Assembly: GCA_963799845.1 (NCBI GenBank)
Contig: CAWCYI010000004.1
Location: forward strand, 1,600,001-1,664,000
Source of the DNA: an uncultured Nitrososphaerota archaeon
GTDB lineage: Archaea > Thermoproteota > Nitrososphaeria > Nitrososphaerales > CADDZS01
DNA: 64,000 bases
Reading direction: 5' to 3'
This document shows positions 57,877 to 64,000 of the stretch, piece after piece. Each line of letters starts with the position of its first letter. Position 1 is the stretch's first letter. The position numbers and the translations under genes were made by a program. The notes beneath the pieces are model-generated. The model had not been told where the DNA came from and made no database searches. It saw nothing but the letters and a program-made list of their open reading frames with translations.

Positions 57877-58323
57877 ATGGAATTTTGTTCAAGCTGCGGG
57901 CGAGTGGTTCAGCCTGATCTCCCTTACTGCCCGTACTGCGGCGCGAGTTTGAGAAACTCGAGCTACTCCTCCCGCCAGCCGTACCAGACTGTGGGGACCT
58001 ATTACAAACGACAGGGGAAGAAGCCTTGGGTCGCGGCGGGGCTGGCCCTTGTACTGGGACTTTTTGGGCTGTGGGGAATAGGGCATCTCTACGCGGGAAA
58101 GTTTGCGCGGGGTATCGGGCTCCTTTTTACTGGACTCGTTATCGGGGGACTATTCTGGTTCAGCGTTATACTCACGGTCATCCTCGTCGGATACGTGGGG
58201 ATCGTGCTATTCGGGCTGTTCTTTGTGGGCGGATGGCTCTGGCAGGCGTTTGATGCGTACAATGCCGCGCACGAGTATAACGAACTACATGCGACGGTGT
58301 TCCAGAGAAATAATTTCTTTTGA
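57877..58323 (+). CDS. Zinc-ribbon plus TM2-domain membrane protein
   Basis: CSSCG..YCPYCG; K.PWVAA.L...GIGHLY.G. Confidence 0.85.
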   Translation: MEFCSSCGRVVQPDLPYCPYCGASLRNSSYSSRQPYQTVGTYYKRQGKKPWVAAGLALVLGLFGLWGIGHLYAGKFARGIGLLFTGLVIGGLFWFSVILTVILVGYVGIVLFGLFFVGGWLWQAFDAYNAAHEYNELHATVFQRNNFF

Positions 58324-58376
58324 GTTACAAACTACAGCTTGTTTTGAGCTCTGATTGAGTGACCGATAGCTGAAAC

Positions 58377-58685
58377 AAAAAAGGTGCCCCCTCCACACCG
58401 ACGGCGACACACGCCGTCGAACGCACCCTAAATTGCTCCCTAACCTGACCTAATACGCCACTAAGGAGTTCAACCCTTACCTTTTTCCTTTTTGCACGCC
58501 AGTGCAAAGTGACGGCACCTACGGTGCCAAGTGACATTCATACGCCTAAAATACCGACACTACCGGCACTTTTTGTTGAAGTGCTTACGGCAATTGGCGA
58601 CACACGCCAACTGTTAGGGGTTGCCTTCGGCAATCTAGAGTTTGCGAGACGTGTGAGTGTCTTAGACCAGCAATATTGTTGCGCC
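58377..58685 (-). ncRNA. Unknown ~310-nt highly structured element (ncRNA or ssDNA fold)
   Basis: Seven or more hairpins plus long-range helices; G-U/T pairs only on the minus strand; ends GCACC-TTTTTT. Confidence 0.6.
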
Positions 58686-58697
58686 ACATGCTCGGTC

Positions 58698-59090
58698 ATT
58701 GGATTCTCGTAACGCGCTCCAAGGACATCACCTTTGCCCAGAAAGGCTCGCAGACTCTTCTACCTGTATCAAAATTATTTTCTTGATTCGTTCCTTTGCA
58801 AGCATGTCCTCAAATTGGGAAATTATCTTACGTCCATAACCGTGTCTCCTATAAGGCTCGAATACTTCCAATGAGCGCAATTGTATTATCTGCTCATTGA
58901 GTTTGCCAAAGACGCCATTGCCTTGCACCAGCTTGGTTTAATTTTTAGCGACAAGTTCGAGCAGCATTATCTTACTTTCTGCCTTAATTCCATCCTTCTA
59001 TCGATCTCGCAAACCCTGTCATATTGGATAGGATATCTTTGATGGGAATAATTTGGCCTTTCATCGAAAACTATTTTCTTAGATTTTAGT
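58698..59090 (-). pseudogene. Decayed GNAT acetyltransferase
   Basis: LRSLEVFEPYRRHGYGRKII (motif A), then FWAK in a shifted frame; upstream part has stops. Confidence 0.65.
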
Positions 59091-59199
59091 CAAATCCAAC
59101 AAATGACCCTCTAGAACACCGATTTCGGAGTCTCAGAAATTAGATAGACTTGAAAAAATGACTAATCTGTCTTAAATGATCAAAAAATACATTAGGAAC

Positions 59200-59298
59200 A
59201 TATAGGTGCTTTACTCCTGTTCTGAAAGTAGTGCTGCATGATGAGGTATCAGTTGGCAACAGACTCGAAATTAATCGTCCGTTGCCGTCAATGAACTA
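59200..59298 (-). pseudogene. cas1: cas1 remnant, continuation beyond the IS630
   Basis: FIDGNGRLISSLLP in frame with the N-terminal part after IS removal, then HHAALLSEQ in a shifted frame; homology lost beyond ~59200. Confidence 0.7.
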
Positions 59299-60423
59299 AC
59301 CTGGCCGACATAAATTATTAGACTGAAAGGGCCACAGACCTAGACATTCTCATTTTTGGCCAACTTCCCTTCCTATCTCAGGTTGTATGTCTCGATTACA
59401 GGCACCGAAGGAGATTGTTGAAGAGGCTTATAGAGAGGAGAGGGACGCAAACGTAAGCAAGAGGATATTCCTCGTTCTGAAGGTCAAGTACGAGGGTGTC
59501 CCGGCGTCGCACGTAGCAAGGGAAGTTCACCGGCACAAATCATGGACGACACCGTGGCTTAGACGTTTCGAGAAAGATGGGCTAGAAGGACTCAAGACGA
59601 TGGAAAGGAGCGGGAGACCTCCGAAGCTCGATCACAACAAGTTCATTGCGGTGAAGAGGAAGGTCGTGAAGAACGAATGCGGCTGGACCGTGAAGGAGGT
59701 CAGGGAGATGATCCGCAAGGAAGCAGACGTGGCATACACTGAGAGACACATCTACAGGTTGATGCAGAAGTGGGGAGTGAGAGCAATTGTCCCTGACAAG
59801 AGGTTACTTCACAAGGCTTCCCTCGAAGAGAGGCTCGAATTTAAAAAAGGACCGCAAGACTCCTCAGGAATATCCCGGAAGGCTTCACCGTAGCATCCGA
59901 AGACGAATCAATCTTCGTCCAGAACATAGAAACCAAAAGGGTGTGGGCGGTCAAAGGGATTCGACCGATTCGGATTGTGTCAGGCTCGCACGGCAACACC
60001 GTGGTGTTTGGAGCGATCAGCCTGGACGGGACACAAATCTTCAGGCAGTACGAGAAATTCAATGGCGAGACATTCCTCGACTACCTGAAGAAGGTGCACA
60101 GGAAGTTTGGATCACTCTATCTCTTCCTTGACAAAGCAAGGCAACACCACAAAACCAGGATCGTAACTGATTATTTGGGTAAGAACAGGAAGACTCTCAG
60201 AGTCAGATGGATCCCGACAGCTTCGCCAGAGTTCAACATGATGGAGGAGTGTTGGCGCGAGGGTGAGAAGGATTCTCTCAAGGCTTCCAACCTTTCCGAC
60301 GTCATTGAAAGAACTGAAATCAATCCTGGCAGAATACTATCGAACGCGAAGGTTTTGCTCGCATCTTGACATGAAGAAATTCCTTCTGACCAACAGGTGT
60401 CTATGAACTTATGTCGGCCAGGT
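59299..60423 (+). mobile_element. IS630-family insertion sequence (1125 bp)
   Basis: 25-bp TIRs ACCTGGCCGACATAA(a/g)TT..TAGAC (22/25 match) at 59299-59323 and 60399-60423; TA duplicated on both sides. Confidence 0.95.
59387..60406 (+). CDS. IS630 transposase (HTH OrfA + DDE OrfB via -1 frameshift at TTTAAAAAAG 59840-59849; extra indel near 60270)
   Basis: SGRPPKL HTH region; catalytic D (EDES), D (FLDKA), E (MMEECW); stop lies inside the right TIR. Confidence 0.9.
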
Positions 60424-60638
60424 TAAACAGAAACCTTGTGCACCGCCAACCAATTAATGGCGGACATTGTAATTGAACCAAAACCTCTCGGACAGATTAT
60501 CGTGTCATAGGTCATCTTTCCTATCGGAAAGATTCCGGCGGTTTCTCTTTTTGAAGAAAAGTTGTGCGTGGTTTCTACCACTAGGTTTGTGTCTTGAACC
60601 TTGATGAATGCACTCTCGTCTAAAATTAGCGGATTCAT
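60424..60638 (-). pseudogene. cas1: Solo/casposase-like Cas1 N-terminal domain, interrupted by IS630
   Basis: MNPLIL....IKV....LVV...YDTII..G.GSITMSAINWL..HKVSV matches the Cas1 N-terminal beta domain; continues as FIDGNG across the IS. Confidence 0.78.
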
Positions 60639-60656
60639 TCTACGTTATGTAGGCGG

Positions 60657-60671
60657 GGAGAATATATCTCC
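60657..60671. promoter_or_regulatory. Palindromic, possibly bidirectional TATA promoter/operator
   Basis: GGAGA-ATATA-TCTCC about 25 nt from the cas1 ATG (minus) and about 25 nt from the start of the plus-strand structured element. Confidence 0.5.
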
Positions 60672-60689
60672 TTTCGGCCTCTCTTTTTC

Positions 60690-60843
60690 TGCCGTGTCCG
60701 AGGGGGGTGGGTGGTGCCTAGGTGAGTTAGTTAGTGCCTAACAGCAGCTATGGCAATAGCAGAACCTGCTAAACACTAAGACAACCGCCCTAAGTGTGAC
60801 GCGTCCTCGGTCGCCAAAGCGAACCTGAAGGCATGATGTTTTT
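60690..60843 (+). ncRNA. Unknown ~150-nt structured element divergent from cas1
   Basis: Nested stems CCGAGG/CCTCGG, GGGTGGT/ACCGCCC, TTAGTG/CACTAA, AGCAG/CTGCT, GCTAT/ATAGC, TCGC/GCGA; ends in a T-tract. Confidence 0.5.
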
Positions 60844-60844
60844 G

Positions 60845-63800
60845 CTACTCTTGATTCCATGGCATTACCATCTTGAAGACTTCGACTTCGGTACTTACGT
60901 TCCTCAGTGACTTCAATCCCAAACTTTGAAGCGGCAAGTCGAACTTGTTTTGTAGATGATCGTAAACCTGACGAGTAAGGCAGACTCCACCATGTTCGGC
61001 AAGTGACTCGATCCTTGATGCCACGTTGACGGCATCTCCTGATATGTCTCCATCTTCAGATTCTACGACATCCCCAACGTGAACCCCTACTCTTAATTGG
61101 ATTCTTTGATCTTCAGACAATGAGATGTTGAATTCTCTCGTTGCTCTCTGAATGTCGTAAGCACATCTGGTTGCCTCTAGAGCGCTTGGAAACTCTACGA
61201 GGAAACCATCTCCAATTGTTTTGATTTCCCTGCCATTGTGTCTTTTGAAAATTGGTCTTAGTAATTTCCTTTGTTCACTCACCAGAGCGAGCGAGAGTGT
61301 TTCGTTTTGCTGCCCTAAGGCAGTGAAACCTACCATATCTGTGAACATAATCGCCGCCAATTTTCGTTCGATACTTTTCACTTCGACGTTTTGAGGTTCA
61401 AATTCGTAAGATCTGTACTTTCCTAGTTCGTCAACAAAGAGTATTCTAGGTTTGAGTTCAAAGTTCCCTTTGTTTTTTGCAACGAAGTTAAGAAAGATTT
61501 CGTGAGCCTTGAGGTAATCCAGTCTCTTCCCCTTGAGATCAACTGCGATAGAGTTTCCGCCTTCGAGAAAATAATGTTCATTATTTTCGCCTTCCGCCTC
61601 AAAAGCGTTAGAAGGAGCAATGTTATCTAGTTTCATAAGTAATGCAGGAGTCTTGCCAACATTTGCAATGTCAATGCCTAGTTTAATGGAAGAACCAACA
61701 TTGGTAGATTTTGTGGAAAGAGAAATGTTCCCCGTAAGATTCGCAACTTCGAACCTTTCGAGTCCAACTGCTTGGTCGCGAGTGAAATTGACGGGACTAG
61801 CAGAAACTGTTGGACTCTGAGAAAGTGCCTCCATTGGAGTGATTAAGAGTTCTCTGTTTTCTCTCGCAGTTTTGAGATGCTTCAAAACTTCTGTCCTCTT
61901 CTTCTCATAACCAATGTCTCCGTATCTTCTGGCTGACAACTCAAGGTGCTTTTCGGCTAGATGATACATCTGTGTTTTCTTCTGAGGATCAATTTCTCGC
62001 TCTGCTCCCGCAAGATATGCTAAAGCATCGAAGAGTGCCTCAGTTGCTCTTGTCCAATCCGACGCTATTTCAAAGCCTGCTTCTTCGTAGTATCTTGATG
62101 CTACACCTAGTTTGGTTTTGATCTCAGAATACAGACTAACATCGCTTGATTTCTTGAACCTTGTGCCTGCCTCAAAAGCTTCGCAGATAGAGGAATTAGC
62201 AAGGCACGACAGGACAAAACTTTGCTTCATGATATTCTCCTTCGCTTTCAGAAAAATCTCTGAGGCTTTATGATAGATTTCTGACGAAGACTTGACCTCC
62301 GCTTCCTTCATTGCTGCCCAAGCATCGCAAGAGAGTGCTAGAGCATCAAGTTCCATCCTGTCTTCTTCGCTTGCATCTTTTTCTAGTTGCCTCAGAGTTT
62401 CAGATGCTGAGCGATATCTCGTCATACTTTGTTTTACCTCGCCATTTTTGTCGAGAACTCTTGCTTCGTCAAGTTCTTTTCTTGCTAGGCAGTATTTGCC
62501 TCTAGATTCAGAGAGCTTCGCCCATTCCTTTAGTTCACTTTCTTGTGGAGGAGAGAGCTTTGCAAGACTCAATGCTTCTTGCTTGGCTTGCTCGAACAAC
62601 CCGTAAGCTTCTCCGAACGAAGATGATGCCTCAGTGTTGCTTTCCTTTCTGCTGAATCCTTCTGCTCCTTCCATCTTTGAAAATGCAAGGTAATGCTTGG
62701 TTAATTGTCTGAAGGTCTCAGTTTTATCTAAAATGCCCGCTGCTTCTATGAGTCTCTCGGAAGCAGATTCGTATTTTTCATCGCTATGAAGAATCCTTGC
62801 CTCTTCTATTTTTGACCACGCTTGCATGTACAGAGAAAGGTCAGCGAATGATTTCTTTAGGCTCTTTTGATTTGCCGACGCTTTCAGGTACTCCTCCGAT
62901 GCCTTGACGAATGCATTGGATGACTTGGAATACTCTTGGATAGAGTCGTAGAGCTTCGCGGTGTTCCAGGCGATTGGAGCTGAGGTACGCTAGTAGATTA
63001 GCCTGGGAGTAATAGTTTGACGCTTCATCATACGCCTTGATTGCCTCAATGCAGTCGTCCCTTCGCTGGGAGAGATTGTAGAGCTTTGTCAAAGTGTTGC
63101 CTAGAGATTCGCATGCTCTTCCTACATTCTGAAGATACACCGTTGATATTGGCAAACTGTTCAATGCTTTTGCCTTGATATCCTTGGATTTTTTCAAATC
63201 CGACACGCTCTGCTTCAGAAGAGTTTCTTTTTCCTGCTGGCTCGTCTTTTCCTCTGCAAGTTTAGCCTCGACAAGAGCATGCATTGAGTAGAGCACGCCC
63301 GTATTCCAAGAATCTGACCCAGCCAAGGTTTCAAATCTTTCCAGCTGTCTCGAAGTCAAGTCAGCCGCCTCCGAAAGCAGTCTTTCTCTCTCGCCTTTTG
63401 AGCTCATCAACTCTGCTTTCAGAAGCAGGGCTTGTCCAAGATACGGTCCCACGAAACCTAAGGAGTAAAGGGATTGGAATTCTAAGCCCGTTCTTCCGAA
63501 CTCTATCGCCTTGTCAAGATATTGCATTTTTTCAGAAATGGTGGTCGAATCTATCGACAACAAATTTAGTACCCGCGAGCAAAATGAGTAAGATTCTTCG
63601 AGGTCGCCTGTGCGCAGTACTTTGAGACGCTCTATCGCCCTCAAGAGAGCTTCAGTCGATTTTTCAAGCATCACTTTCCTTTCCTCGGCAACGTCCAAAG
63701 AATGAGAAGCCCAGTGGAGACTGTAGCCCAAGTAGTGGTACTGTTTGCCGAGGAGGTTGGTGTCCCTTATCTTCTCTGATTCTGCAAGAGCTTTTCCAAG

Positions 63801-64000
63801 AAAGCAGCTCCTCCAATCCAGTCGCCTCTGAAGTCGATAGCCATGCGTCCGGCTGTTTCATAACCGAGCGATTTGAGCAAAGATTCATTGGTCTTGTCTG
63901 CTAGCTCGCTTATGGCACCAGTCACGAAAGGAACGAGTTCTTCTTCGATTTGTTTTCGCTCGCTTGAATCAATGAAAATTTCCGGAGCCCATCCAAGGAA
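60845..64000 (-). CDS. Large TPR-like/helical + Ig-like + class III adenylate cyclase protein (5' end beyond window; several indels)
   Basis: AAIMFTDMVGFT, IKTIGDG, LRVGVHVGD, DISGDAVNVASRIE; upstream ORFs 62841..63731 and beyond are continuous helical repeats. Confidence 0.88.

Follow-up and report, generated by a model that had tools for sequence, protein, structure and literature searches.

We analysed a 64,000-nt window from the genome of an uncultured Nitrososphaerota archaeon (contig C4:1600001-1664000; "the window" below is this whole stretch), in which a cas1 remnant, split by an insertion sequence of the IS630 family, lies between the remnant of a GNAT acetyltransferase gene and a nucleotidyl cyclase gene. 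A preliminary description had read this place as a new system: once the insertion sequence is taken out, a unit of ~1.35 kb in which cas1 stands between two related, permuted, outward-pointing structured elements, serving either as its ends or as encoded RNAs. We call these elements 1 and 2 and list them with the neighbouring features in Table 1. What had been read from the letters themselves was largely confirmed: all eight motif instances (8/8) are present as they had been written and where they had been placed, both elements end in T-runs, the GNAT remnant matches its Pfam family on the minus strand, and the inserted IS630 carries helix-turn-helix (HTH) and DDE_3 open reading frames (ORFs) between 27-nt inverted ends.

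Table 1. Features at and around the left end of the unit, in window coordinates (L005 is the locus that spans both ends of the unit).
Feature	Position	Strand	Remarks
Zinc-ribbon/TM2-like gene	end at 58323		left of the insertion
Non-coding stretch	58324-58727		
Left half of interrupted ~160-nt hairpin repeat	58341-58376	+	insertion target
14-bp target duplication, left copy	58363-58376	+	same 14-mer at L005 10448-10461
Left terminal inverted repeat, 212 bp	58377-58588		most of element 1
Subterminal region	58589-58670		remainder of element 1; further short hairpins and second copy of GGCGACACACGCC
GNAT acetyltransferase remnant	58728-58928	-	66-codon ORF; Pfam Acetyltransf_1
Stretch of ~370 nt	between GNAT remnant and IS630		no clean frame
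Second recognisable cas1 remnant piece	59234-59296	-	~21 codons past the insertion sequence junction
IS630-family insertion sequence	59297-60425	+	includes TA duplication; splits cas1
Cas1 (casposase) N-terminal domain	60426-60638	-	71 codons
Near-palindromic TATA-like box	60655-60668		~29 nt upstream of cas1 ATG; read from the sequence
Element 2	60690-60843		spacer from cyclase gene stop (60845) to cas1 promoter
TPR-like/class III nucleotidyl cyclase gene (cargo)	60845-64000	-	ORFs of 660, 296 and 271 aa; extends past the window

A blastn search of the host's own genome showed that the outer 212 nt of element 1 (58377-58588) have an inverted copy at C4:1667447-1667236 that is 99.5% identical over the full 212 nt. 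This partner lies at window-equivalent positions 67236-67447, 3.2 kb past the end of the window. The two arms agree at 211 of 212 positions, the outermost 207 nt being perfect and the single mismatch falling at 58584, and blastn found no third copy of the repeat in the genome. Directly outside both tips stands the same 14-mer, CCGATAGCTGAAAC. Moreover, the left flank (58341-58376) and the right flank (L005 10448-10590) align unbroken to uninterrupted members of a dispersed repeat family, for example at C4:983563-983700, and in these uninterrupted paralogues the 14-mer segment occurs once only. Because the two flanks rebuild one member of the repeat family and the paralogues hold the 14-mer a single time, we conclude that a unit of 9,071 bp, reaching from 58377 to window-equivalent 67447, was inserted here and duplicated 14 bp of its target. 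Element 1 forms the left end of this unit and comprises its terminal inverted repeat (TIR) and subterminal hairpins. The supposed ~1.35-kb unit does not stand, since the partner of element 1 is this inverted copy 9 kb away; the window holds the left 2.5 kb of the element.

The target belongs to a family of repeats of ~160 nt, to which 32 blastn high-scoring segment pairs (HSPs) were obtained in the genome with a 601-nt query laid over one copy, the matches falling within the ~160 nt; further paralogues lie, for example, at C4:983543-983706, C4:575099-575260 and C6:1509016-1509084. The first module of the repeat is predicted to form an imperfect hairpin of ~70 nt, in whose apical loop the insertion break falls according to an alignment of four sequences with little covariation; the second has a GC palindrome and a TATA-like box at its end. 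The family may represent a MITE, a small-RNA gene or a mobile promoter. None of five loci of the repeat matched Rfam. As to the ends, element 1 folds more stably than shuffled sequences (z -2.9 as RNA and -3.35 as DNA), and the source of this excess is a number of short GC hairpins. A direct repeat, D9, occurs both inside the TIR and just beyond it (58403-58415 and 58596-58608). The subterminal region, in turn, is absent from the right end of the unit and might offer binding sites for a protein.

Parts of the stretch were present in five DNA runs from two studies, with no RNA run listed, and contigs of four soil runs of one study cover both junctions. These soil contigs possibly stem from the genome's own source sample and do not count as independent. 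No contig of the four soil runs skips the element. In run X2, one contig connects the right flank and the repeat with the opposite strand of the left interior (L005 1584/10241; window 58584/67241), so that the interior may have been inverted by recombination between the 212-bp arms, or the joint may be an assembly artefact. A loose end in run X3 (L005 10452) disagrees with the left flank in sequence; we take it for a paralogous copy of the repeat. The X2 joint also bears on another origin of the arms, in which they would not be transposon ends at all but the outcome of an inverted duplication or other local rearrangement, such as IS630 might promote. Recombination between the arms is possible in view of that joint, and IS630 is highly active in this genome (18 HSPs). 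However, a rearrangement would neither put an identical 14-mer outside both arms nor split a repeat member so that its halves rejoin in register, and in the aligned uninterrupted repeat members the 14-mer is not duplicated. We consider such an origin very improbable.

The only trace of an integrase belonging to the unit itself is the 71-codon ORF, which, judged by its sequence matches, holds as a Cas1 remnant of which only the N-terminal domain survives. Searching 1.84 billion representative proteins with HMMER returned six matches at E<=1e-3: the ORF itself, two repeat proteins with PAN and HYR domains, and three proteins that score against Pfam Cas_Cas1, namely P0003 (174 aa, 1.2e-14), P0005 (334 aa, 3.3e-39) and P0006 (373 aa, 1e-43), the alignments to all three beginning at residue 1. 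We then rejoined the peptide by excising the IS630 by its coordinates, reading the stop as X, and compared it with a casposase profile of 373 positions built from three full-length relatives. The rejoined peptide matched positions 1-90 with 44.9 bits in an alignment that crosses the insertion sequence junction, which supports the Cas1 assignment of the preliminary description and its view that the place holds the remnant of a Cas1-linked mobile element. Past position 90 the profile gave no match; a few Cas1-like residues picked out by eye in another frame found no support in the profile search. Similarly, tblastn with five full-length Cas1 proteins found the N-terminal piece alone and no Cas1 catalytic domain in the unit, and in a tblastx comparison of the unit with the genome's three other Cas1 loci and a locus of a genome of the same genus (G004:C124), only IS630 and the Cas1 N-terminus matched. 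Searches of NCBIfam and of PDB sequences with the 71-aa piece found nothing.

Excision of the IS630 and one TA leaves an in-frame TAG, at a place where both the G004 homologue and P0003 have a tyrosine. G004 also has a homologous FIDGNGR..SSLLPT stretch, which matches the second cas1 piece of the window (59234-59296). The closest full-length relatives are casposases with a C-terminal HTH, encoded by an element in a genome of the host's order, G063 (37.5%), by G004:C124 (39%) and by cas1b of the host's own genome (35%). The window remnant groups with the cas1b and G063 proteins, not with a further casposase of the genome, cas1a; a C-terminal HTH is present in P0006, the G063 protein and cas1a. 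The casposase gene of the window is dead: it is split by IS630, has a TAG in frame at the junction, and has lost its catalytic and HTH parts. The GNAT gene, to which the cas1 remnant is fused, is truncated as well (Acetyltransf_1 E 2.7e-5, covering only profile positions 54-102 of 116), and this fusion suggests an internal deletion, which could have taken other genes too. Casposase matches with an in-frame TAG occur in several genomes of the order (G063, G219, G279, G120, G272 and G214) and are probably pseudogenes.

The element that split cas1 has the features of its family: a DDE_3 transposase, an N-terminal HTH (HTH_32/HTH_33), short inverted ends (27 nt each, 59297-59323 and 60399-60425, both beginning with TA) and a TA duplication. 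It is present in many copies, with 18 blastn HSPs in the genome, at this and 17 other places, and many of these copies are 100% identical in translation by tblastx. The copy in the window has one additional base near 60273-60274 as compared to its sister copies and the metagenome contigs.

Element 2 proved to be of a different nature. As compared to element 1 (minus strand), its plus strand gave a local alignment score of 17, which is the mean of dinucleotide shuffles (17.1 +/- 2.3) and was reached by 274 of 500 of them. Shared words told the same: the two elements have three 8-mers in common where 0.99 were expected (reached by 121 of 1000 shuffles) and eight 7-mers where 3.56 were expected (69 of 1000). 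The likeness of the two elements in inverted orientation is therefore at the level of chance. Nor does element 2 fold beyond its shuffles, with z values of +0.11 (plus strand) and -0.92 (minus strand), and it has no second copy in the genome by blastn and no match in Rfam. At the gathering threshold, Rfam had no match in the whole window (0 matches), and the six obtained at E<=10 on 58000-61200 are all at chance level. Hence, of the claim that both elements are structured, the part concerning element 1 stands (z about -3), and that concerning element 2 does not; likewise, element 1 is one end of a mobile element, whereas element 2 is only a spacer between the cargo gene and the casposase promoter. 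That it might be former coding sequence of the cyclase gene was ruled out, as paralogous cyclases end at the same place. From the 71-codon ORF to the stop of the 660-codon cyclase gene at 60845 the distance is 206 nt, and the TATA-like box within it may, by the usual spacing of archaeal promoters, serve a leaderless cas1 transcript.

These results leave little of the model of a cas1 unit bracketed by two related structured elements. The motifs and the T-runs on which it was built are there, the near-palindromic TATA box does lie between cas1 and element 2, and one can conceive of a divergent transcript with its start near 60690. But against it stand the chance-level alignment and k-mer counts, the absence of excess folding and of a second copy of element 2, the region upstream of the homologous cas1 remnant in G004, which by inspection (no score or shuffle control) aligns only poorly to element 2, and above all the near-perfect partner of element 1 at 9 kb with its matching 14-bp duplication. 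We regard this model as highly unlikely: the data do not support a new system in which structured elements bracket cas1, one of the two being a spacer and the partner of the other lying beyond the window. Element 2 could still be functional on its own and unrelated to transposon ends, for instance as a non-coding RNA of ~150 nt that is transcribed divergently from the TATA box and ends at a T5 run. By its sequence, the plus strand would have the TATA-like box ~25-30 nt upstream of 60690, and a T5 stands at 60839-60843; yet the lack of excess folding, of an Rfam match and of any copy or conserved counterpart found makes an RNA improbable.

To place the 9,071-bp unit, we compared it with other casposase loci. 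In the same genome, cas1a is intact, encoding 388 aa with a C-terminal HTH, and an ORF of 711 aa with a match to protein-primed PolB (pPolB; model PF03175, 1.7e-10) lies 2.5 kb upstream, which is an ordinary casposon layout (both genes at C4:199133-203844; L007 3133-7844); no ends of this unit could be located. The cas1a protein aligned over its full length to PDB chain 6OPM (6.8e-46), a code that appears in the structure paper of the Methanosarcina mazei casposase, and the best CRISPR Cas1 reached 1.9e-17. The tblastn comparison of cas1a with the window fragment gave no match. A pPolB beside an HTH-bearing casposase mixes hallmarks of casposon families 1 and 2. Matches resembling cas1a were present in 54 of 301 genomes sampled from the host's order, a tally that includes the unpublished genomes G001 and G270, although no particular claim depends on these two. 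The second locus, cas1b, belongs to a unit of 5,173 bp (C4:233599-238771; L006 2599-7771) with perfect inverted ends of 127 bp and a 13-bp duplication, CCCACCATTTTTA. It encodes a casposase of 328 aa, the C-terminal HTH being in another frame, a TrmB-like winged HTH protein and eight ORFs without a confident family, two of which have weak, sub-threshold matches; among the ten ORFs scanned there was no polymerase. The IS630 likewise has copies beside the two casposase loci of the genome other than that of the window, one at C4:206690-207821 and one running from C6:1750143 up to where the contig ends.

The third comparison is the unit in G063 (contig C1; L084 5353-15365), which spans 10,013 bp and has inverted ends of 132 bp. 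Its duplication, of 16 bp, reaches into the 3' end of a tRNA-Leu gene (L084 15377-15462) and begins with CGCA from the tRNA side, a target that matches that of the M. mazei casposons. The unit carries an HTH casposase resembling that of cas1b, with one in-frame TAG, as well as a C5 methylase, a Vsr nuclease and a ParA-like ATPase, and no PolB (family B DNA polymerase) is present in or near it. When genome contigs were searched with a profile from a three-protein casposase alignment, nine loci were returned, all of them distant bacterial Cas1; viral contigs gave none.

The 212-bp ends and the 14-bp duplication could also stem from another transposon superfamily, its transposase lost or acting in trans; the cas1 remnant would then be only a passenger, or a leftover of its surroundings. 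The missing catalytic domain of Cas1, the host-like cargo and the lack of PolB would all agree with this. On the other hand, no transposase or integrase domain besides those of the nested IS630 was found among the ORFs of the unit (eight ORFs plus the IS630 pair, each of at least 60 aa). Furthermore, 14 bp is the stagger of casposases, the published duplications being 14 bp for the enzyme of M. mazei and 14-15 bp for that of Aciduliprofundum boonei in the account cited (PMC6977970). Finally, in the cas1b and G063 units long inverted ends and duplications of 13-16 bp go together with a casposase of the same clade as sole recombinase. An origin from another superfamily thus appears improbable.

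The ORFs scanned in the unit comprise the Cas1 remnant, the GNAT remnant, cyclase pieces of 660, 296 and 271 aa, a hemerythrin-domain protein and small unknown ORFs; none matches a polymerase, and none encodes an HNH nuclease or a conserved HTH protein, the HTH of IS630 excepted. The cyclase gene (Guanylate_cyc E 2.7e-19) has paralogues at roughly 20 or more places with a cyclase domain, by an informal tblastx count. Its three pieces (60845-64000 and L005 5841-7582) are probably one TPR-cyclase gene of ~1,230 aa, because 1-nt indels at L005 5984 and 6791 set the metagenome contigs apart from the assembly and because, in G009, homologues of the 271-aa piece belong to frames that range from 592 to 1,126 aa, with three of the four exceeding 1,090 aa. 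The assembly may contain indel errors elsewhere too. A role of the cyclase in defence was considered and set aside: the likeness to Pycsar cyclases is weak (PADLOC, 4.6e-7), and there is no partner. A stretch of ~420 nt inside the unit (L005 8558-8980, window-equivalent 65558-65980) has a copy at C4:2015671-2016118 that is roughly 90% identical at the translated level.

We also confirmed that cas2, a CRISPR array and polB are lacking here, the first two having been searched for throughout the genome, which is 86.7% complete, and the last within the unit. No Cas2 exceeded the cut-off (best E 0.02), and a crude k-mer scan of the genome gave no CRISPR array, so that an adaptation module of cas1, cas2 and array was not found. 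Transfer RNA genes were likewise not detected by tRNA scans in the window or in L005-L008.

Taking these data together, we read the unit as a decayed derivative of a known kind of element, a casposon-type transposon of 9,071 bp, and put the probability of this reading at roughly 0.8. It is based on the 14-bp duplication, which has the size made by casposases, on a TIR length within the range of casposons, on the Cas1 remnant as the only recombinase besides that of IS630, and on the sister units cas1b and G063, which are built alike, with inverted ends and duplications of 13-16 bp. We speak of a derivative and not of a full member since PolB is missing. In the proposed mechanism, a casposase, that is a Cas1-family integrase, would bind both inverted ends, whose 3'-OH groups would attack the two strands of the target 14 bp apart; repair of the gaps would then duplicate these 14 bp. 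The target would have been the apical loop of the ~70-nt hairpin module in the dispersed repeat. Since the unit is without PolB, the copy is not autonomous and is incapable of transposing or replicating unaided. That its ends are nearly identical may mean that it inserted recently, perhaps with help in trans, or that recombination between the arms has homogenised them.

Several observations weigh against this reading. The Cas1 assignment depends, at the sequence level, on an N-terminal match of 71-90 residues; with the Pfam Cas1 model alone, the locus went undetected both by hmmscan of the 71-aa piece and in a six-frame search of the genome. The four catalytic residues of Cas1 (E, H, D, D/E) are not present, and as the catalytic part is absent, the tie between a casposase activity and the 212-bp ends is a presumed one. 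PolB, by which casposons are defined, was not found within C4:1658377-1667447 in a six-frame genome search with PF00136 and PF03175. No CGCA, the motif of M. mazei targets, occurs in the duplication, and the target is neither a tRNA nor an ef-2 gene. As cargo, a cyclase from a large gene family of the host is out of the ordinary among the casposons on record. Mobility is read from a single copy, the 212-bp repeat not having been found in 12 other genomes of the family, and neither this genome nor those 12 contain an autonomous partner with the same ends. Of the evidence for insertion, the 14-bp duplication at both tips and the paralogous empty site are in place, but an empty-site allele was seen neither in G004 nor in the metagenome contigs. 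The Amt gene upstream of the insertion has a close orthologue in G004 only (84%), and synteny with G004 breaks off within the gene that immediately precedes the insertion, which makes that genome uninformative on the empty site. Lastly, a near-perfect repeat beside a heavily decayed integrase gene requires an extra assumption.

Casposons have been described from Thaumarchaeota, for example NitAR1-C1 of family 1, a family that carries pPolB and usually inserts in ef-2. The host shares with family 1 a casposase 2.5 kb downstream of a pPolB match, at cas1a, and the window unit shares a hemerythrin-domain gene; the unit differs in having no pPolB and no ef-2 target and in the HTH of its relatives. 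Family 1 casposases are described as lacking the HTH (PMC8464041), and genes for hemerythrin-domain proteins are reported as common in integrated elements of thaumarchaea (PMC6563490). As defined in the passages cited from the original description, casposons combine Cas1 with PolB and are self-synthesising, have TIRs that range from 25 to 602 nt and in some cases contain palindromes, as well as target duplications of 1-27 nt with a median of 15, and may harbour nested insertion sequences; a C-terminal HTH on the casposase is the hallmark of family 2 (PMC4046053). With TIRs of 212 bp, a 14-bp target duplication and no other integrase or transposase in the scanned ORFs, the unit fits these dimensions. 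The same TIR range, with its internal palindromes, also disposes of the novelty once seen in structured ends supposedly unlike simple casposon TIRs (PMC4046053).

The closest likeness is to family 2, represented by the M. mazei casposons at tRNA-Leu and AciBoo-C1 of A. boonei. Common to both sides are a Cas1-family integrase (in the window unit, a putative one recognised by its N-terminal domain) as sole recombinase, TIRs with a 14-bp duplication (PMC6977970, in the part cited) and a target within or beside hairpin-forming sequence; the closest full-length relatives of the remnant carry the C-terminal HTH, the window copy having lost its own C-terminus. The enzyme of A. boonei is described as recognising the palindrome of the T-psi-C arm (PMC9939771). 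In other respects the window unit departs from family 2: the ORFs scanned include neither PolB nor the family 2 core genes for an HNH nuclease and two conserved HTH proteins, the integrase is cut to ~90 residues, the inverted repeat measures 212 bp as against 31 bp in the M. mazei casposon, and the target is a dispersed repeat instead of the 3' end of a tRNA gene or, as in M. mazei, a conserved intergenic site with CGCA, the duplication having no CGCA. The cargo, too, differs, consisting of a host-like TPR-cyclase gene and a hemerythrin-domain gene. Decay as such has precedents in the account cited, where MetBur-C1 to C3 of Methanococcoides burtonii and solo TIRs of M. mazei illustrate the loss of core genes and the persistence of leftover ends (PMC4779613). 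The MetBur-C1 to C3 relics are without TIRs and target duplications, whereas in the window unit ends and duplication are near perfect and the integrase has decayed. In having intact ends and a duplication without a working transposase, the unit resembles miniature inverted-repeat transposable elements and other deletion derivatives of DNA transposons, but with 9 kb and cargo it is far larger. An account of non-autonomous or PolB-less casposons was not found in the literature searched, which did not extend to the supplementary tables of the casposon papers.

The only novel angle of the locus is a possible lineage without PolB. Three units with inverted ends and a target duplication fit this pattern: that of the window (9.07 kb), that of cas1b (5.17 kb) and that of G063 (10 kb). 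The absence of PolB from the window unit and from its two better-preserved relatives supports, without establishing, a tentative and rather doubtful proposal, namely that the order may harbour a casposase-mobilised lineage that never carried PolB. In such a lineage, the casposase would be the integrase of plasmid-like or cargo units, and the window copy would be a non-autonomous member moved in trans.

By itself, one decayed copy adds little to what is known of casposons, and the apparent new system is half of a larger element whose other end lies beyond the window. The insertion in the loop of a hairpin repeat nevertheless provides a target that is neither a tRNA nor an ef-2 gene and on which the reading of palindromes by casposases could be tested. 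It has been proposed that the adaptation module of CRISPR descends from casposons. Should the PolB-less pattern hold, the casposase would be a stand-alone integration module serving different replicons, and such a state would come nearer to the presumed starting point for the recruitment of Cas1.

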